Part shown: in pieces, positions 19,642-29,804 of the stretch
Layout: the number at the start of each line of letters is the position of its first letter
Position numbering within the stretch: the stretch's first letter is position 1
Assembly: GCF_046105845.1 (NCBI RefSeq)
Contig: NZ_CP151004.1
DNA from: Escherichia coli
GTDB taxonomy: Bacteria; Pseudomonadota; Gammaproteobacteria; Enterobacterales; Enterobacteriaceae
Length of the DNA: 64,000 nucleotides
Direction: 5' to 3' (one strand)
Notes under the pieces: generated by a model
Database searches by the model: none
What the model was told of the DNA's origin: nothing
What the model saw: only the letters and a program-made list of their open reading frames with translations
Made by a program: the position numbers and the translations under genes

Positions 19642-19734
19642 TGGCCTCTTATAAAAAGAGCAATAGCGGTCATGTTTTCAAATAAAAACACTTCGTAAGC
19701 TTCTCGCCCTTTTATACTCGTTCAGGAGTGTGTT

Positions 19735-20884
19735 ATGGCTGCTTCCACCTTTTTTTATTCCTTCCGTTAATGTCATTGGTGCAGATTCTTTTAAAGATGC
19801 GATGAATATGATGGCGGAATATGGTTTTCGCCGTACATTAATTGTGACTGATAGTGTGCTAACAAAATTAGGTATGGAGGGTGATGTACAAAAAGCATTA
19901 CAGGAACGTGATATTTTTAGCGTAATTTATGATGGTACGCATCCTAACCCGACCACAAAAAACGTCGCAGAAGCTCTTAAAATGCTGACGGAAAATAATT
20001 GCGATAGCGTGATTTCTTTAGGTGGTGGTTCCCCGCACGACTGCGCAAAAGGCATTGCGCTGGTGGCAGTTAACGGCGGCGATATTCGCGATTACGAAGG
20101 CGTGGATCGCACGGCGAAACCGCAACTACCGATGATTGCCATCAACACCACGGCGGGTACTGCATCAGAAATGACCCGTTTTTGCATTATCACCGACGAA
20201 GCACGCCACATCAAAATGGCGATTGTGGATAAACACGTCACCCCGCTGCTTTCTGTGAACGATTCGACTCTGATGATGGGTATGCCGAAGCCGTTAACCG
20301 CCGCCACCGGGTTGGACGCGCTGACTCACGCCATCGAAGCGTATATCTCTATTGCGGCAACGCCGATCACTGACGCCTGCGCGCTGAAAGCAATGACCAT
20401 GATCGCGGAAAACTTACCGATAGCGGTTGAAGATGGTCACAACGGCAAAGCGCGTGAAGCAATGTCTTACGCTCAGTTCCTCGCGGGCATGGCGTTTAAT
20501 AATGCTTCACTGGGATACGTACACGCGATGGCGTATCAGTTGGGTGGCTTCTATGACCTGCCGCACGGCGTTTGTAATGCCATTCTGCTGCCGCACGTTC
20601 AGTTATATAACAGCAAAGTTGCCGCCGCACGCTTTGACTGCGCGGCGGCTATGGGCGTGAATGTCACAGGCAAAAACGACGCGGAAGATGCGCAAGCCTG
20701 CATTAAAGCGATTCGCGAACTGGCGAAGACAGTGAATATCCCGGCAGGCCTGCGCGATCTGAATGTGAAAGAAGAAGATTTTGCGGTGCTGACCACCAAT
20801 GCCCTGAAAGATGCGTGTGGATTCACTAACCTTATTCAGGCAACCCATGAAGAAATTGTGGCGATATATCGCGCCGCAATGTAG
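19735..20884 (+). pseudogene. iron-containing alcohol dehydrogenase (YiaY/FucO family) paralog with an apparent +1 frameshift after codon 7
   Basis: ATG at 19735 with RBS aggag reads [15 protein letters not shown]; removing one T from the 7-T run restores [18 protein letters not shown]...; rest of ORF 19730..20884 is a full-length Fe-ADH (GGGSPHD motif, His-rich metal site). Confidence 0.6.
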
Positions 20885-21244: not shown

Positions 21245-22396
21245 ATGGCAGCTTCAACCTTTTTCATTCCCTCTGTGAATGTAATTGGCGCGGATTCATT
21301 AAAAGATGCAATGAATATGATGGCGGATTATGGTCTGCGTCGTACATTAATTGTGACAGGCCGTGTAATGGGCAAGAGCAGCGTGTTGGTGCAACTCCAA
21401 CAAGCCTTGCAGGAACGCAATATCGTAAGCGTTGTTTATAATGGCTCCCAACCGAACCCAACGACGAAAAACGTGGCTGCGGGTTTAAAAATATTGCAGG
21501 AAAATAATTGTGATAGCGTTATCTCCTTAGGCGGCGGTTCTCCACATGACTGTGCAAAAGGGATTGCGCTGGTGGCAACCAACGGCGGCGATATCCGGGA
21601 TTACGAGGGCGTAGACCGCTCGGCGAAACCGCAATTGCCAATGATTGCCATCAACACCACGGCGGGTACGGCGTCTGAAATGACCCGTTTCTGCATCATT
21701 ACCGATGAAACGCGCCACATCAAAATGGCAATTGTGGATAAACACGTCACCCCAATTCTTTCTGTTAATGATTCTACGTTAATGATGGGGATGCCGGAGT
21801 CACTGACCGCCGCCACTGGGATGGACGCATTAACCCATGCCATCGAAGCATATGTCTCTATTGCGGCAACGCCGATCACTGATGCTTGTGCATTGAAAGC
21901 GGTCACCATGATTGCTGAAAACCTGCCGCTGGCAGTAGCAGACGGAAGCAATGCCCAGGCGCGTGAAGCTATGGCTTACGCCCAGTTCCTCGCGGGTATG
22001 GCGTTCAACAACGCATCGCTGGGTTACGTTCATGCAATGGCGCACCAGTTAGGTGGTTTTTACAACCTGCCTCACGGGGTGTGTAATGCTGTTTTGCTGC
22101 CGCATGTTCAGGAGTTCAACAGCAAAGTTGCCGCTGCACGCCTGCGTGACTGCGCGGCGGCAATGGGTGTGAATGTAATGACAATGAACGAAGCTGAAGG
22201 TGCGCAAGCTTGCATTAATGCCATTCGCGAGCTGTCGAAGAAAGTGAATATCCCGGCAGGCCTGCATGAACTGGATGTTAAAGAAGAAGATATTCCGGTA
22301 CTGGCCACCAATGCCCTGAAAGACGCATGTGGGTTTACAAACCCAATTCAGGCAACCCACGAAGAAATTATGGCGATTTATCGCGCCGCAATGTAA
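21245..22396 (+). CDS. yiaY: iron-containing alcohol dehydrogenase (YiaY family), intact, 383 aa
   Basis: [26 protein letters not shown]...; Fe-ADH motifs; length matches what I recall for K-12 YiaY; which of the two copies is the true ortholog is uncertain. Confidence 0.8.
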
Positions 22397-22525: not shown

Positions 22526-23821
22526 ATGGTTATCAAATCACCTCCCACGCTGATTCCTTTATCACACTTATCGGGTGAGGAACTCCAGGCCCACCTGCGC
22601 TTTAACCGGGTTACCGATGAAAAAGGACGTTATCTACCTTTTGATGAGTTGCAGTACCGCATCAAAAAAGGAGAAAACGTCGAAGTGGCGTGGACGCTTA
22701 CCCGTCTGGCGCGCAACGCGGCGATCCAACGAATCAATTATTGCAATGAAGCGGGTGAACAGGCCGGATACAACATTACCCCGGTGATTGCAGAAGCGTG
22801 CGAGCTTGTCGACAAACGTGCTACCGCGCTGGCGCTGAAAGATCAGACTGAACGGTTACGCGGGGCCGGAGCCGAGTTAAGCCAGTTACGCCTGGAAGAG
22901 CCGATCACCAGCTCCCAGCTGGAAGGTGCGAATACTACAACGCTGGTGGCGAGAAAAATGCTGGAAACAGGGCGGTCGCCACGCACTGAAGACGAGCATA
23001 TGATTGCAGGAAATGCCCGACTGATGGCGGAAATTCCGCACTTACTCGCAGAACCGCTGACACCTGCGCTTATTCGCCAGTTACATGCCATTGGTATGGG
23101 TGGAATCAATGACGCGAAATATCGTCCGGGAGAATTTCGTGAAACAGATGATGTTGTGATCGCCGACTATGACGGCAATATTGTGCACCAACCGCCCGCT
23201 GCGGCATTGTTGCCGGAACGGCTGGAAAAAGTTTGCCAGTGGTTAAACAGCCATGAAGGGTATATTCACCCGTTAATCCGTGCCTGCATTCTGCATTTTA
23301 TGCTGGCCCATGAACATCCATTTCGCGATGGCAACGGGCGCACCAGTCGGGCACTGTTTTACTGGTATATGCTGAAATCGGGCTACGATGTTTTTAAATA
23401 TATTTCCATCAGCCGTTTTCTTCATGCTGCGCCAGTCAAATATGCTGCCAGCTACCAGTACACTGAATCAGACGGTATGGATCTGACTTATTTCCTTGAG
23501 TATCAGGCGGGTGTCATTAAACGTGCTTTGCAAAACTGGCAGCAGCATATTGATGAAATTATGCAACGAAGTGCAAAACTCGATAGTGTGCTGTTTAGCT
23601 CTGGTGTGCTTAAACGCCTGAATCCGCGCCAGGTAACGCTCCTGAATGTGATGCTCGCCAATCCGGGGAAAGAGTACACAGTTGCTGAAATTAGCGCGAG
23701 CCTGGGCGTCTCTGATAATACGGCTCGAGCTGATTTACGGACAATTGTTAAAGAAGGGTTTGCGCAAGAGAAAAGAATTAATAACCAGCAAGCAGTGTAC
23801 GTCGCACACTACCCGCTGTAG
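22526..23821 (+). CDS. Fic-domain protein (putative AMP-transferase), 431 aa, with N-terminal inhibitory-type motif and C-terminal HTH-like region
   Basis: Canonical Fic motif [12 protein letters not shown] at residues 264-275; S-x-x-x-E-G match (SSQLEG) at residues 129-134; C-terminal about 70 aa resembles a winged helix-turn-helix. Confidence 0.85.
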
Positions 23822-23928: not shown

Positions 23929-25467
23929 ATGACCAATAATCCCCCTTCAGCACAGATTAAGCCCGGCGAGTATGGTTTTCCTCTTAAGTTAAAAGCCCGT
24001 TATGACAACTTTATTGGCGGCGAATGGGTAGCCCCTGCCGATGGTGAGTATTACCAGAACCTGACGCCGGTGACCGGGCAGCTGCTGTGCGAAGTGGCGT
24101 CTTCGGGCAAACGAGACATCGATCTGGCGCTGGATGCTGCGCACAAAGTGAAAGATAAATGGGCGCATACCTCGGTACAGGATCGCGCGGCGATTCTATT
24201 CAAGATTGCCGATCGGATGGAGCAGAACCTCGAACTGTTGGCGACGGCAGAAACCTGGGATAACGGCAAACCCATTCGCGAAACCAGTGCTGCCGACGTG
24301 CCGCTGGCGATTGACCATTTCCGCTATTTTGCCTCGTGTATTCGGGCGCAGGAAGGCGGGATCAGTGAAGTCGATAGCGAAACCGTGGCCTATCATTTCC
24401 ACGAACCATTAGGCGTGGTGGGGCAGATTATCCCGTGGAACTTCCCGCTGCTGATGGCGAGCTGGAAAATGGCCCCTGCGCTGGCGGCGGGCAACTGCGT
24501 GGTGCTGAAACCCGCACGGCTTACCCCGCTTTCTGTACTGCTGCTAATGGAAATCGTCGGTGATTTACTGCCGCCGGGCGTGGTGAACGTGGTCAACGGC
24601 GCGGGTGGGGAAATTGGCGAATATCTGGCGACCTCGAAACGTATCGCCAAAGTGGCGTTTACCGGCTCAACGGAAGTGGGCCAACAAATTATGCAGTACG
24701 CCACGCAAAACATTATTCCGGTAACCCTGGAGCTGGGCGGCAAGTCGCCAAATATCTTCTTTGCTGACGTGATGGATGAAGAAGATGCCTTTTTCGATAA
24801 AGCGCTGGAAGGCTTTGCACTGTTTGCCTTTAACCAGGGCGAAGTTTGCACCTGTCCAAGCCGTGCTTTAGTGCAGGAGTCTATCTACGAACGCTTTATG
24901 GAACGCGCCATCCGCCGTGTCGAAAGCATTCGTAGCGGTAACCCGCTCGACAGCGTGACGCAAATGGGCGCGCAGGTATCTCACGGGCAACTGGAAACCA
25001 TCCTCAATTACATTGATATCGGCAAAAAAGAGGGCGCAGATGTGCTTACCGGCGGGCGGCGCAAGCTGCTGGAAGGCGAACTGAAAGACGGCTACTACCT
25101 CGAACCGACGATTTTGTTTGGTCAGAACAATATGCGCGTGTTCCAGGAGGAGATTTTTGGCCCGGTGCTGGCGGTAACCACCTTCAAAACGATGGACGAG
25201 GCGCTGGAGCTGGCGAATGACACGCAATATGGCCTGGGCGCGGGCGTCTGGAGCCGCAACGGTAATCTGGCCTATAAGATGGGGCGCGGCATTCAGGCCG
25301 GGCGCGTGTGGACCAACTGTTATCACGCTTACCCGGCACATGCGGCGTTTGGCGGCTACAAACAATCAGGTATCGGACGCGAAACCCATAAGATGATGCT
25401 TGAGCATTACCAGCAAACCAAGTGCCTGCTGGTGAGCTACTCGGATAAACCGTTGGGGCTGTTCTGA
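23929..25467 (+). CDS. aldB: aldehyde dehydrogenase B
   Basis: 512 aa from [17 protein letters not shown] (RBS aggag upstream); aldehyde dehydrogenase family with catalytic Cys region; the 542-aa ORF is a 5-prime extension. Confidence 0.9.
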
Positions 25468-25744
25468 TATAAGAAGCTGGTCGCATTGGGTATTCATTGC
25501 CTGATGCGACGTTTGCGCGTTTTATCAATTCAAATGTCTACGTCTTGAATGACTGAATATTGATTGAACTTAATTACGAGTCTCCTCGCATATTTTCTAC
25601 CAATTACTGCACACCGTTATTCTTCTTCCGAGTGGCATTCCTGAGTCAACTTTATCCCCCTGACGGCCCATATAAATCGCGCTATCGTGATTGTTATCGC
25701 TAATTGTGTGTGTATCGTGTGTATAATCATGGAAGGGCAGGGAT

Positions 25745-25930
25745 GTGAAAAGTGCAGACGTGATCGCCATCCTGAAGCAGCATGGCTGGGAACATATTCG
25801 AACCCGTGGCAGTCATCATCAGTTCCGCCACCCTGTTCATCCGGGTCTGGTGACGGTTCCGCACCCTAAAAAAGATATTAAGCCCGGTACGCTGGCGCAA
25901 ATTGGGCGTCAGGCTGGTTTAACATTTTAA
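25745..25930 (+). CDS. hicA: HicA-family toxin
   Basis: 61-aa basic protein (GTG start) ...LKQHGWEHIRTRGSHHQFRHP...; size and G-S-H-H motif fit HicA; immediately followed by hicB. Confidence 0.75.
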   Translation: MKSADVIAILKQHGWEHIRTRGSHHQFRHPVHPGLVTVPHPKKDIKPGTLAQIGRQAGLTF

Positions 25931-25946
25931 AATTTCAGGAGGCAAT

Positions 25947-26357
25947 ATGTTTTATCCCGCCTATATCCACAGTGATCCTGACGGCAGCGCCAGCGGTTTT
26001 TTCCCTGATGTTCCAGGCTGTTATTTTGCTGGTGATACGCTGGACAACGCTTTCCAGGATGCGCGAAGTGCACTGGTCGCGCACTTCGAAACCTTATGCG
26101 AGATGAATGAAGAGTTGCCGCTTCCAGGCTCTGTGGAAACACATCTGGTCCAGCGTGCGCAGGACTTTATTGGCGGGCAATGGTTGCTGGTGGATATCAA
26201 TATGAATCAATTCGAAGGTCGGGCTGAACGTATCAATATTACGATGCCAAAAAGATTACTGAACAAGATTGATACCTACGTGCGCAATAACCCAGACTAT
26301 GCCAACAGAAGTGCGTTTCTGGCGGAAGCTGCCCGGCGTGTATTGCCGGGCGTTTAA
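25947..26357 (+). CDS. hicB: HicB-family antitoxin with C-terminal ribbon-helix-helix-like region
   Basis: 136 aa; N-terminal HicB-like fold; C-terminal RINITMPKRLLNKIDTYV...RSAFLAEAARR resembles an RHH DNA-binding domain; 16-bp gap after hicA. Confidence 0.75.
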   Translation: MFYPAYIHSDPDGSASGFFPDVPGCYFAGDTLDNAFQDARSALVAHFETLCEMNEELPLPGSVETHLVQRAQDFIGGQWLLVDINMNQFEGRAERINITMPKRLLNKIDTYVRNNPDYANRSAFLAEAARRVLPGV

Positions 26358-26402
26358 TCTCGCGTTTCGATGGTTGGCGGGCAACCGCACCGATATGTTG
26401 AT

Positions 26403-26432
26403 ACTGATAAGACGCGTTAAGCGTCGCATCAT
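26403..26432. repeat. REP-like element at the hicB / glycosidase 3-prime junction
   Basis: ctgataagacgcgttaagcgtcgcatcatg resembles a REP unit; a partial REP-like gcctgatgcgacg lies near 25500 after aldB. Confidence 0.5.
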
Positions 26433-28393
26433 GCGCTGGTTTCCTCATTCACCCAGATCCGCATTTCGCCTTCACCCCGGTTGGCCCAGCTAAACCACGG
26501 GATAAAGGTCAGGGTTTGCGGCTGGCGTTTGGCTGGCGCACTGTCGTAATGCCACAGCGGTTGTTGTTCTGGATTGCTCTGTTCATACCGGTAACCCGGT
26601 GCCTGGATTAAGATCTTATGGCTGAACAATCCCTTACCTTCAAATGTCGTAAATGGCGCATCGGCGGGCAGCCACAGATTATGCAGTGACTCGCCGTTGT
26701 CGGCCTGTTCCAGGCAATACACCAGCGGGCCGCGCTGAATCGCCACTTTTCCGGCGACGTGACGCACCAGCGGGTTACCGTAAACGCGGCGTACCGGCAT
26801 CGGCAAAGTCAGATTCAGCGTATCGCCCTCCTGCCATTCGCAGGTAATGTGCAAATACCCTTTACGAATATCCTGCTCGACCTCTTCCCCATTCAATATG
26901 ATCTGCGGCTGTGTGCACCAGTCCGGCAGACGTAAAGCCAGCGTATGACGCACCGGCTGGGGCGATTCAACCGCAATTGTCACCTGTTCCTGCCACGGAT
27001 AGTTTCCGCTAACCCGCAGACGCAGCGTGCCATTTTCTACCGGCACTTCCATGCTGTTTCCTGCGTAGATGTTGATATACAACGCATCTTCACGCGGCGT
27101 GTAGAGATAATGACCAATCGAGGTTAGCACGCGGGCGATATTTGGCGGACAACAAGCGCAACCAAACCAACGCTGGCGGATCGGCTTAACGTGATCGTAG
27201 ATATGGTTGAATTTTAACGTTTTTGGATGCACTTCCAGCGGATTAACGTAGAAGAAATGTTTGCCATCCAGCGCCATGCCGCCGAGCACGGTGTTGTACA
27301 GTGCGCGCTCCATCACATCGGCATATTGACTGTCGCCTTCCATTTCCAGCATTCGCCGGGCGAACATCATCAGGCCGATGGAAGCACAGCTTTCGGCGTA
27401 TACCGTGTCATTCGGCAGATCGTAATCGCTGCTGAACGCTTCGCCGCTGCTTTGTGAGCCAATGCCGCCGGTAATATATAACTGACGCTGGGCCATATTG
27501 TTCCACAGCCGCAGGCAGTCCTGACGCTTGCTTTCATCGTGACTTAAACGCGCGAGATGCGCGACACCGGTCATCAGATATACAAAGCGTACTGCATGTC
27601 CGATGGCGGTTTGTTGCTGTGCGATGGGCAAATGCGCCTGGCTGTAGGCTTTATCTTTCACCATCCACGCCGGGCCGTAGGTGTGCCAGTGCGAGGTCTG
27701 CCCGCGCTTTTCATATTCCTGGTCGTAATAGTGCGGTTGCGCACCACGCTGTTCGACAAAATAGTTCGTCAGCGCCAGGTAGCGCGGCTCTTCGGTCACT
27801 TCATACAGGCGCATTAGTGCCAGTTCAATTTCCGGGTGACCAGGATAACCGTGTAACTTACTTTCACCTGGACCAAATACGCTGTCGATATGATCGGCCA
27901 GACGGCAAACCACTTCCAGCAAGCGCCGCTTGCCCGTGGCCTGGAGGAAGGCGACTCCGGCTTCAATCAGATGACCGGCGCAGTAAAGTTCATGACACTC
28001 CGCCAGATTGCTCCAGCGTTCTTCGGGCGCTTTTACCGTAAAGTAAGTATTGAGATAGCCATCTTCGCACTGGGCGGAAGCGACCAGTTCGATTACCTCG
28101 TCAGCGGTTTTTTCCAGTTCGGCATCCGGCTTCTGGCACAGCGACCAGGCTACCGCTTCCAGCCATTTGGCGACGTCGCTGTCCTGAAACACCATCCCGT
28201 AAAATTCACCGTCTTGCAGTCCTGCGGCAATGCGAAAGTTTTCAATCGCATGGCTGGGTTCCGCTTCTGGGATACGATCGTTCAAGGCATCCCACTGATA
28301 AGGAATCACCACGTCGCGGACCAGTTGTTGGTACTGACCGAGGAACGGATCGCTGACCGTCAGTTTATGCAGATCGACTTCCGAAATGTTCAT
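26429..28393 (-). CDS. glycoside hydrolase family 127-like protein (DUF1680 / beta-L-arabinofuranosidase-like)
   Basis: About 654 aa from MNISEVDLHKLTVSDPF; AAGGAG RBS 6 nt upstream of this start; Cys-rich C-terminal half as in HypBA1-type enzymes; assignment is from family resemblance by eye. Confidence 0.65.
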   Translation of the reverse strand: MNISEVDLHKLTVSDPFLGQYQQLVRDVVIPYQWDALNDRIPEAEPSHAIENFRIAAGLQDGEFYGMVFQDSDVAKWLEAVAWSLCQKPDAELEKTADEVIELVASAQCEDGYLNTYFTVKAPEERWSNLAECHELYCAGHLIEAGVAFLQATGKRRLLEVVCRLADHIDSVFGPGESKLHGYPGHPEIELALMRLYEVTEEPRYLALTNYFVEQRGAQPHYYDQEYEKRGQTSHWHTYGPAWMVKDKAYSQAHLPIAQQQTAIGHAVRFVYLMTGVAHLARLSHDESKRQDCLRLWNNMAQRQLYITGGIGSQSSGEAFSSDYDLPNDTVYAESCASIGLMMFARRMLEMEGDSQYADVMERALYNTVLGGMALDGKHFFYVNPLEVHPKTLKFNHIYDHVKPIRQRWFGCACCPPNIARVLTSIGHYLYTPREDALYINIYAGNSMEVPVENGTLRLRVSGNYPWQEQVTIAVESPQPVRHTLALRLPDWCTQPQIILNGEEVEQDIRKGYLHITCEWQEGDTLNLTLPMPVRRVYGNPLVRHVAGKVAIQRGPLVYCLEQADNGESLHNLWLPADAPFTTFEGKGLFSHKILIQAPGYRYEQSNPEQQPLWHYDSAPAKRQPQTLTFIPWFSWANRGEGEMRIWVNEETSA

Positions 28394-28403
28394 CTTGTGC
28401 TCC

Positions 28404-29804
28404 TTAAGGCTGTACATGACGCTGACGCAGGTCGCTAGCTATGCGTGACATCATAGGGTTATTGAGTTTGCAAAAGCGGATCGCCATCGCCAGCAGCAGG
28501 TGGAATAGCGCAGGCAGCAATGTTTCCATCGCCGCGATCCCGCCAAGCGAACTGGCGGTCTGGTTTTCCACGCCTGGCTGGTAGGCGACAAAAATAAACA
28601 GCAGGCTGATGATCCCGGCGCTGGAGGCCCAGGCCAGCTTGATGAAAAACAGATTGAAGGCGAAGTTCATGCCGGAAGAACGTACGCGGGTTTTCCACTC
28701 GCCGTAGTCATCGGCAAAGGCCATCAATGAGAAGTGCAGTGGCAATGTGAAGCCAAGAATCACGCCATTACCGAGGATCACCGCCAGCCACAGCGTTTGA
28801 TAAGCCGGGCCGGAGGGCAGGAACCACATCAACACCGCCAGCGCGGCGAGGAGCAGGTTGGTGTAGTAGTAAATTTTGACGGTATCGAAACGCCGCGTTA
28901 ACGGGCTGACAATCACCGAGCCGATAATGGAGGCGAAGGTGACCATGGTGAAGAACAGCGACGTGTAGCCCGTACTGCCTTGTAAGACGTAGGTAATGAA
29001 GTACATATACCCACCGCCGCGAATATTAAAGACGTTAATCAGCAGGAAAGACATGACCAGCATCAGCAGCAGTTGGTCGTTGTTCCGCAGCCCGGCAAGA
29101 TGTTCGCGCAGGGTAAATTTCCCCATTGTGGAGAGTGGCACCCGTTCACGAACCCAGAAGAAACAGCACAGGAACATCACCACGGCAATGGCGCACAATA
29201 CGCCGACGCCCAGTTGATAGCCGCGCGCGGCATTACCCTGACCGAAGAGATCCACCATCCACGGCAGGCCAACCGAAACCAGAAATCCCGCTACGCCGCA
29301 GAGAACGAATCGCCAGGACTGGCAGGAGATCACTTCATTGTGGCGGGTGGTCATGGTGTTGATCAGCGCGCAGTACGGCACGTTGATGACGGTATAACCG
29401 ACTGAAAGGAGCAGGTAAGTGCCGAACGCCCAGGCGATTTTTACTCCCATGCTGGCATCTGGCACGGTGAACGTCAGGATGCCGATAATGCCGATGGGAA
29501 TGGCAATCCACAACTGCCACGGACGAAAGCGCCCCCAGCGACTTTGCGTCCGGTCGGCAATGACGCCCATCACCGGGTCGGAGATGGCATCAAACACGCG
29601 CAGTGCAATAAACAGCGTGCCGACCAGCGCCGGAGTTAAGCCAAAAACGTCGGTGTAGAAAAAGGTGAGAAAGTTCATGATCAGGCAAGTTATTACGGTG
29701 CCGCCTGCGTCACCCAGGCCGTAGCCTATTTTTTCCCGTACAGATAACGCATCGTCAATTTTACCTTTAGCGATATCAGCGGTAGTAATCGGTGTAGAGG
29801 TCAT
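28404..29804 (-). CDS. GPH-family (glycoside-pentoside-hexuronide) cation symporter
   Basis: 466-aa 12-TM protein; N-terminal GYGLGD motif and overall MelB/YicJ/XynT-like pattern. Confidence 0.8.

Follow-up and report, generated by a model that had tools for sequence, protein, structure and literature searches.

A chromosomal HicAB-family toxin-antitoxin operon in the aldB 3' flank of Escherichia coli, probably an old resident of this site

Downstream of aldB, in the 64,000-nucleotide stretch of Escherichia coli DNA that we analysed (the window), lies a pair of small genes, hicA and hicB. We identify them with high confidence as a chromosomal HicAB operon, a type II toxin-antitoxin system whose antitoxin is of the ribbon-helix-helix (RHH) subtype, long resident at the aldB flank. 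Judging from its sequence, the pair is most likely a working RHH-type module. As a toxin-antitoxin pair it is already known: RefSeq gives both genes their correct names, and the structure of the family and its general mechanism are established. In the literature searched, we found no experimental paper on the aldB-flank pair and none linking hicAB to the aldB/yiaW locus. Hou et al. 2023 reportedly dealt with hicAB deletion and biofilm in ExPEC PPECC42, and Winter et al. 2018 are said to have dealt with HicAB-DNA of B. pseudomallei.

Results

Organisation of the hicAB locus

The original prediction had placed a 61-aa and a 136-aa open reading frame 16 bp apart between aldB and a glycosidase gene, with coordinates and spacing that proved correct. 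Read directly, both frames are intact, with no frameshift in either gene. The toxin gene comes first and the antitoxin gene directly downstream on the same strand, which is the organisation of a type II toxin-antitoxin system.

25731-25737, + strand: GGAAGGG, a putative Shine-Dalgarno-like sequence of hicA, 7 nt 5' of its start
25745-25930, + strand: hicA toxin gene, GTG start, 61 aa
25931-25946: spacer of 16 nt between hicA and hicB
25937-25942, + strand: AGGAGG, Shine-Dalgarno sequence of hicB, within the spacer and 4 nt 5' of the ATG
25947-26357, + strand: hicB antitoxin gene, ATG start, 136 aa

The left neighbour is aldB, whose stop is at 25467, and the right neighbour is a convergent open reading frame of 662 aa (26429-28417, - strand), which is annotated as GH127 in matching genomes. 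The pair had also been described as adjacent to the Fic locus; in fact, aldB in full stands between the Fic gene (22526-23821) and hicAB.

HicA and HicB belong to the HicAB family

Profile searches with HicA and HicB models, put forward earlier as a way to check the assignment, gave matches far beyond chance. HicA matches Pfam HicA_toxin PF07927 with E 2.1e-23 (residues 4-59 against positions 2-58 of the 58 of the model), and HicB matches HicB_lk_antitox PF15919 with E 9.1e-36 (residues 3-129 against positions 1-123 of 123). Together with full-length matches to solved structures, they establish the identity of the pair. The NCBIfam scan gave no match for HicA or HicB; this is because the models are missing, and it is not evidence against membership of the family.

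The closest solved structures for HicA are those of HicA from Burkholderia pseudomallei, 4c26 and 6g26 (E 1.2e-16, full length), and from this homology we infer a dsRBD-like fold of about 60 residues. The segment R21-G22-S23-H24-H25 aligns with G-S-(H24A)-H of 4c26, and HicA carries G22, S23, H24, F27, V36, V38, P39, P41, D44 and G48 at the positions of the B. pseudomallei protein. Toxicity of B. pseudomallei HicA needs Gly22 and His24, and S23, F27, V36, V38, P39, P41, D44 and G48 are given as conserved in HicA (PMC3969222).

Residues 2-133 of HicB align with B. pseudomallei HicB, 6g1n (E 2.8e-25), and residues 1-132 with Yersinia pestis HicB3, 4p78 (E 1.6e-21). The alignment runs through the C-terminal segment, approximately residues 95-133 (ERINITMPKRLLNKIDTYV...RSAFLAEAARRVL), which pairs with the C-terminal domains of both structures, and both antitoxins have been described as RHH antitoxins (PMC11594946). 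At the sequence level, this supports an architecture in which an N-terminal HicA-binding domain is followed by a C-terminal RHH DNA-binding domain (about 95-133), and the RHH-like tail that had been noticed earlier is thus borne out by alignment. One fragment in the 90% cluster bears the name CopG family regulator.

Distribution and arrangements of the locus

The exact HicA and HicB proteins are each found on at least 1000 public contigs, under the names "type II toxin-antitoxin system HicA family toxin" and "HicB family antitoxin", and E. albertii, E. marmotae and E. ruysiae are among the names borne by members of their 90% clusters. Of 5426 complete E. coli genomes, 505 contain 80% or more of the hicAB interval and 521 contain some of it. 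The pair occurs as one copy per genome, always on the chromosome, with both genes named by RefSeq, and it lies beside aldB in every locus inspected. The full-length GH127 gene was found in 2315 genomes, many more than carry hicAB. A plasmid search returned no homologue above 58% identity, once two matches of at least 99% had been set aside because these records, at 4.9 Mb, are chromosomes deposited as plasmids; a phage search returned none above 43% identity.

Four arrangements were distinguished, in which repetitive extragenic (REP) elements recur. These are imperfect palindromes of about 30-35 nt, intergenic, of the GCCTGATGCGACGCT...GCGTCTTATCAGGCCTAC type.

Type a: aldB-REP-hicAB-REP-GH127 (the window, 118UI, A1_136)
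Type b: as type a, with window positions 25469-25571 replaced by about 1.4 kb that holds a 359-aa gene with an HsdR-N domain
Type c: aldB-REPs-[about 110 nt]-104-aa ORF-yiaW-yiaV-yiaU-yiaT-REPs-GH127 (O157 and others, K-12)
Type d: aldB-REP-hicA-hicB-104-aa ORF-yiaWVUT-REPs-GH127 (16 genomes)

In the type c locus of K-12, GH127 itself is reduced to the ysaD pseudogene. Type d was found with a chimeric query designed to test for the arrangement aldB-hicAB-ORF104-yiaWVUT-GH127. The 359-aa HSDR_N gene of type b occurs in 190 genomes and stands beside hicA in all loci inspected (L002, L004, L012-L014), and in L011 an IS3-family element occupies the same spot. In assemblies whose proteins go under the name E. 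albertii in some sources, the order is yiaY-Fic-aldB-(HSDR_N or IS)-hicAB-GH127. In the E. marmotae/ruysiae assembly, hicAB follows aldB and is followed by rhamnose genes.

A possible role in phage defence

Candidate roles for the pair include locus stabilisation, stress-induced growth arrest and abortive phage defence, the last of which is conceivable. It is unlikely, in our estimate, that hicAB is mainly an abortive-infection phage-defence module sitting in a small islet with a SoFic-like gene upstream of aldB and, in other strains, with the HsdR-N nuclease gene between aldB and hicA. The Fic protein (22526-23821) matches the SoFic model of PADLOC with E 3e-44, but its score of 41.9 bits with the SoFic model of NCBIfam is far short of the cutoff of 550 bits, and it is only this separate gene that matches PADLOC at all: in PADLOC-DB v2, 0 families match HicA and 0 match HicB. 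The company of the pair speaks for such an islet where the HSDR_N gene stands beside hicA or the IS takes its spot in L011; however, the occurrence of hicAB is independent of that of Fic, as in L001, which has hicAB but no Fic. A defence role of HicAB has been proposed from gene context (PMC11594946); no phage-defence experiment is known for any close homologue.

Non-coding signals around the pair

The region upstream of hicA and the end of hicB hold the following elements.

25572-25744, + strand: conserved 5' region of hicAB, delimited by blast breakpoints, presumed promoter, operator and leader
25722-25727, + strand: TATAAT, a -10-like hexamer 17 nt 5' of the hicA GTG, with no recognisable -35
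26330-26352, + strand: GC-rich hairpin with a 9 bp stem, ending 2 nt before the hicB stop codon, then TTTAATCT

Homology of all hicAB-bearing variants begins at 25572, where the blast breakpoints of L002, L004 and L011-14 fall, and positions 25590-25693 are nearly invariant, even against the E. marmotae/ruysiae locus (L015). A sigma70-like -10 element had been predicted here. The TATAAT hexamer is indeed present, ending 3 nt 5' of the Shine-Dalgarno-like sequence of hicA, but it lies at 25722-25727 and not at 25723-25728, it has no -35 partner at a spacing of 16-18 nt, and a consensus scan found 0 sigma-70 promoters in 25440-26480. As a lone hexamer it is not beyond chance, and its reading as a -10 element is only suggestive. 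The hairpin at 26330-26352 is a possible weak terminator, a single site and no more than shuffles give.

A repeat search for an operator in this region yielded nothing but short repeats whose significance is doubtful; no operator is claimed from them. TATCGTG... occurs upstream of hicA at 25683 and 25713. In addition, a tandem GTGTGTAT at 25708 and 25717 was read by eye. CRP-like half-sites near 25686-25701, also seen by eye, are too poorly supported to claim.

Proposed mechanism

The mechanism that we propose is drawn from work on the HicAB family (PMC11594946, PMC3969222, PMC7167474). By homology, HicA would be a small, dsRBD-like RNase that acts independently of the ribosome and arrests growth, with a toxicity depending on Gly22 and His24. 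The N-terminal domain of HicB would bind and neutralise HicA, and its C-terminal domain would form a dimeric RHH unit repressing the promoter of its own operon, both properties being carried over from homologues. As in the family, an excess of HicA probably releases HicB from the DNA. The strong AGGAGG/ATG of hicB, set against the GTG and weaker Shine-Dalgarno sequence of hicA, would favour an excess of antitoxin.

In K-12 hicAB, the autoregulated promoter gives a transcript that is truncated at the ribosome-binding site of hicA, from which only HicB is made (PMC7167474). By speculative analogy, the TATAAT near the hicA Shine-Dalgarno sequence could give a truncated, HicB-only transcript at the aldB flank, and the full transcript would, equally speculatively, start from a promoter further upstream, within the conserved block 25590-25700.

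Constraint and decay

Compared with its E. marmotae/ruysiae orthologue (L015), hicA has a dN of 0.033 and a dS of 0.318 (dN/dS about 0.10), and hicB a dN of 0.019 and a dS of 0.476 (dN/dS 0.04). These low ratios indicate that both genes are under purifying selection, and they suggest that the pair is likely still functional.

Some alleles nevertheless depart from the intact form. In strain MLI114 (L004), His24 of HicA is replaced by Arg (H24R). The L015 locus is without 73 nt (approximately window positions 25694-25766) that lie between the direct repeats CGTGATTG and CGTGATCG. The TATAAT, the GTG start and the Shine-Dalgarno sequence all fall within this gap, and the annotated start codon of the allele is ATA. 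From these two cases, expression and toxicity may be attenuated in some lineages. Moreover, the loss of hicAB in about 90% of E. coli indicates that the pair is dispensable.

Such losses, the H24R allele, the E. marmotae/ruysiae allele without -10, Shine-Dalgarno sequence and GTG, and, in the window itself, a weak GTG start of hicA with no clear promoter found, would all suit a domesticated or decaying module, in which HicA is non-toxic or hardly expressed and HicB serves mainly as an RHH transcription factor, the whole heading for loss. We hold this to be quite improbable, because none of the residues on which toxicity is known to depend is altered in the window allele, purifying selection acts on hicA itself (the ratio of about 0.10 given above), and the exact HicA sequence is common to at least 1000 contigs.

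REP elements and history of the locus

Three features bear on how the pair came to its present position.

25499-25528, + strand: degenerate REP just 3' of the aldB stop, with an indel, common to loci without hicAB
26274-26382 (to about 26386), + strand: 3' end of hicB (about 84 nt) and about 25 nt downstream, the segment found as a relic elsewhere
26404-26431, - strand: REP between hicB and GH127, with the GH127 stop codon (26429-26431) within it

Both REPs had been noticed in the original prediction, as a partial motif near 25500 and a fuller one at 26403-26432, and both observations stand. The degenerate left REP has as its homologue the canonical REP found after aldB in K-12 and other strains; its region is 95% identical over 60 nt to the K-12 sequence that includes this REP. 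Comparison with the longer REP cluster in L015 and L009 suggests that it is a fusion of two REPs. In Rfam it gave a weak naRNA4/REP-like match (E 0.71), and otherwise the Rfam search gave nothing meaningful. The right REP is found again ahead of GH127 elsewhere in E. coli: the copies in L005-L007, L009 and L010 are 96-100% identical to it, whether those loci have hicAB or not. A pattern built from this right copy itself matches 26406-26430 with 0 mismatches by construction, and so tells us only that this copy is the sole one in the window; 100 shuffles gave 0 matches.

Loci without hicAB (L005, L007, L008, L009) contain a segment 82-96% identical to the 3' end of hicB and the adjoining nucleotides, placed just after the aldB REPs; the identity is 96% in EM03-18-08 and 82-83% in K-12 and O157. 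In MG1655, translation of this relic still gives TYVRNNPDYANRSTFLG----RVLSGV (tblastn with HicB residues 110-136 as query, intergenic region as target, E 7e-10), and the relic carries no annotation in NC_000913.3. A site that still holds the 3' part of a gene cannot count as empty; type c therefore derives from a type d-like ancestor, through a deletion that took out hicA and roughly three quarters of hicB.

The window, for its part, is collinear with type d (L010) up to 26382 and resumes at the REP (26405-26431), with GH127 from 26440. Between the breakpoints 26382 and 26405, the 104-aa ORF, yiaWVUT and the second REP, about 3.9 kb, are missing. Hence hicB abuts the right REP because these 3.9 kb were lost, and not because a cassette was inserted. 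Flanking REPs are found in all arrangements, so that they are resident features of the aldB and GH127 ends.

Taken as a comparison of sequences, these arrangements indicate that hicAB has long resided in the 3' flank of aldB within the genus Escherichia. About 10% of E. coli have kept the pair, and the rest have lost it by deletion, with the hicB 3' relic left behind; the lineage of the window lost the neighbouring yiaWVUT block instead, which placed hicB beside the REP that precedes GH127. The earlier suggestion that the module was inserted between the REPs does not survive, given both REPs in loci without hicAB, the hicB relic in K-12 and O157 and the type d order. Comparative genomics of the aldB flank, which had been proposed along with it, points instead to ancestral residence followed by deletions.

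That hicAB is a mobile cassette inserted between two REPs in the aldB-GH127 interval is thus highly improbable: the REPs do flank it in inverted orientation and toxin-antitoxin modules are often horizontally mobile (PMC11594946), but the right REP lies 3.9 kb from hicB in type d, the relic implies that the pair was deleted at hicAB-less loci and not that it was never present, the pair comes after aldB in every Escherichia lineage compared, the window has neither integrase nor transposase nor target duplication alongside the pair, and no near-identical copies were found in the plasmid and phage searches. Put in terms of a genomic islet, we found no mobility gene, clean empty site or copies elsewhere. 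One further observation in favour of mobility is that hicAB is 99.0% identical between the window and L011-14, against 93.1% for the aldB 3' end and 90.9% for GH127. This suggests that homologous recombination has swapped hicAB between lineages at a later date than the sequences beside it; with the few loci compared (the window and L011-14), it is only a hint.

Discussion

The preferred reading, an RHH-type HicAB operon residing from old in the aldB flank and lost from most E. coli by deletion, can be extended in a more speculative way. The aldB 3' flank could be an ancient variable spot of Escherichia anchored by HicAB, with an RHH-type pair acting in abortive infection or locus stabilisation, interchangeable neighbours (SoFic-like, HsdR-N, IS), a segment re-spread by homologous recombination, and most E. 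coli as secondary losers. We give little credence to this extension as a whole. If true, re-spread would explain the 99% identity of hicAB against 91-93% in the flanks, and most E. coli, K-12 included, would be secondary losers with an unannotated hicB fossil.

As for the residence reading itself, its comparative value is modest: the species carries a second HicAB on its chromosome, with an RHH antitoxin, and this pair is among the ancestral genes of the aldB flank. The natural variants, namely the intact pair, H24R, the promoter/start-deleted allele and the 3' fossil of K-12, are material for studying the decay of toxin-antitoxin modules and the stabilisation of DNA. That flanking REPs imply insertion was a plausible but wrong inference, corrected by comparison of loci, and the reading as ancestral residence with deletions and the unannotated hicB fossil of K-12 came out of this comparison as by-products.

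Among known systems, HicAB of B. pseudomallei K96243 (4C26, HicA H24A; 6G26, the complex; 6G1N, HicB) is the best solved-structure match for both proteins. The Gly22/His24 numbering is identical in the two toxins and, as in the aldB-flank pair, the toxin gene comes first and the antitoxin combines an N-terminal neutralising domain with a C-terminal RHH domain. The identity between the two HicA proteins is moderate, at roughly half of the positions in the alignment. The B. pseudomallei pair is part of a prophage or genomic island (PMC11594946), whereas the aldB-flank pair lies at a conserved chromosomal site with no mobile-element genes. For this closest characterised homologue, RNase activity has not been shown (PMC11594946).

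HicA3-HicB3 of Y. pestis (4P78, 4P7D) also has an RHH-type HicB, and its C-terminal NRS.FLAE motif is included in the HicB alignment. Like the aldB-flank pair, it is an enterobacterial chromosomal system, but at another genomic location and with a HicA3 much more distant from the aldB-flank HicA (E 1e-4).

Finally, HicAB of E. coli K-12 (hicA b4532 / hicB b1438, 6HPB) belongs to the same family and shares the toxin-first operon order. The original prediction had stated that the two pairs differ in sequence and location, and this was confirmed with K-12 sequences taken from NC_000913.3. The two HicA proteins are barely alignable (E 0.011 over 21 aa), and the HicB proteins are 33% identical over the N-terminal 66 residues only, with no alignment past residue 66. 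The C-terminal domain of K-12 HicB is a helix-turn-helix (PMC11594946), in contrast to the RHH domain predicted for the aldB-flank HicB, and K-12 hicAB lies at 1.509 Mb, against 3.755 Mb for the aldB flank (NC_000913.3).

Possible recombination at the hicAB module

We compared the window with four comparison loci that carry hicAB (L011-L014) and whose proteins are named E. albertii in some sources. In this comparison, the hicAB segment (window 25572-26371) is 99.0% identical, whereas identity in the flanks falls to 93.1% at the neighbouring aldB 3' end and to 90.9% in the GH127 gene. In these loci, the module seems younger than its flanks, suggesting exchange between lineages by recombination.

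A trace of the module was also found in E. coli K-12 MG1655 (L017), where the 3' end of hicB persists as an unannotated fossil between aldB and yiaW:

NC_000913.3 3754429-3754972 (L017 6430-6973), reverse strand: hicB 3'-end fossil, homologous to window 26274-26386

Its translation reads TYVRNNPDYANRSTFLG----RVLSGV (tblastn, E 7e-10). The curated NC_000913.3 record has no annotation at this position, and the ysaC and ysaD pseudogenes are annotated close by.

Variant alleles of hicA

Two alleles of the toxin gene are altered. In E. coli MLI114 (L004 6174-6359, WP_000833474.1), His24, a residue critical for toxicity, is replaced by Arg (motif RGSRHQF) and the HicB encoded beside it is intact; this HicA is possibly a naturally disarmed toxin. 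The allele of E. marmotae/ruysiae (L015 6990-7030) lacks 73 nt relative to window 25694-25766, a gap bordered by the direct repeats CGTGATTG and CGTGATCG. With these 73 nt, hicA loses the TATAAT, its Shine-Dalgarno sequence and its GTG start. The start of this hicA is annotated as ATA, but translation more likely begins at the in-frame GTG of codon 6. Purifying selection is still acting on the remainder of the gene.

The aldB-hicA spacer

In several loci, the place of window 25469-25571 is taken by a gene for a 359-aa protein with an HsdR N-terminal domain:

L002 4620-5699: 359-aa HSDR_N gene
L004 4622-5701 (E. coli MLI114): the same gene
L012 5245-6324: the same gene

This protein, which is annotated as 'type I restriction endonuclease' and matches HSDR_N and HSDR_N_2 of Pfam, is encoded in 190 of the 5426 complete E. 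coli genomes searched. In the loci inspected (L002, L004 and L012-L014), its gene lies between aldB and hicA on the opposite strand. L011 has an IS3-family element at this position instead. The spacer between aldB and hicA is a small insertion site whose content varies.

Downstream of hicB

At 26429-26439 in the window-type locus, the REP contains the stop codon of the GH127 gene (26429-26431), and homology to the yiaT-adjacent form of this gene begins only at 26440, so that the final few codons differ among locus types. The nearest NCBIfam model for the GH127 protein is aceric acid hydrolase, at 452 bits, well under the cutoff of 950. The full arrangement, represented by L010, has an additional ORF at this end of the module:

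L010 7408-7722, minus strand: 104-aa hypothetical ORF, convergent with hicB, absent from the window

The stops of this ORF and of hicB overlap (TTAA), and no match to NCBIfam was obtained for it. It lies within the block that the window lineage has lost by deletion. At the same place in the K-12-derived MG1655_insertion and in DETEC-S792, the annotation shows only a 47-aa ORF.

Upstream of aldB

Three further genes of the window were considered on the other side of aldB:

19730-20884 and 21245-22396: two tandem yiaY-like genes (L-threonine dehydrogenase, Fe-ADH)
22526-23821: Fic-domain gene (431 aa), between yiaY and aldB

The two yiaY-like proteins are 83% identical to each other; a single yiaY is present in the remaining E. 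coli loci that were examined. At the nucleotide level, this stretch is only about 82-84% identical to most complete E. coli genomes, and just 7/5426 reach at least 90%. It resembles a rare segment that arose by duplication or recombination.

The presence of the Fic gene varies independently of hicAB: 118UI lacks it, and LD67-1 and ATCC 25922 have it. Its product matches the PADLOC SoFic defence model over nearly its full length (E 3e-44) but reaches only 41.9 bits with the SoFic equivalog of NCBIfam, for which the cutoff is 550.
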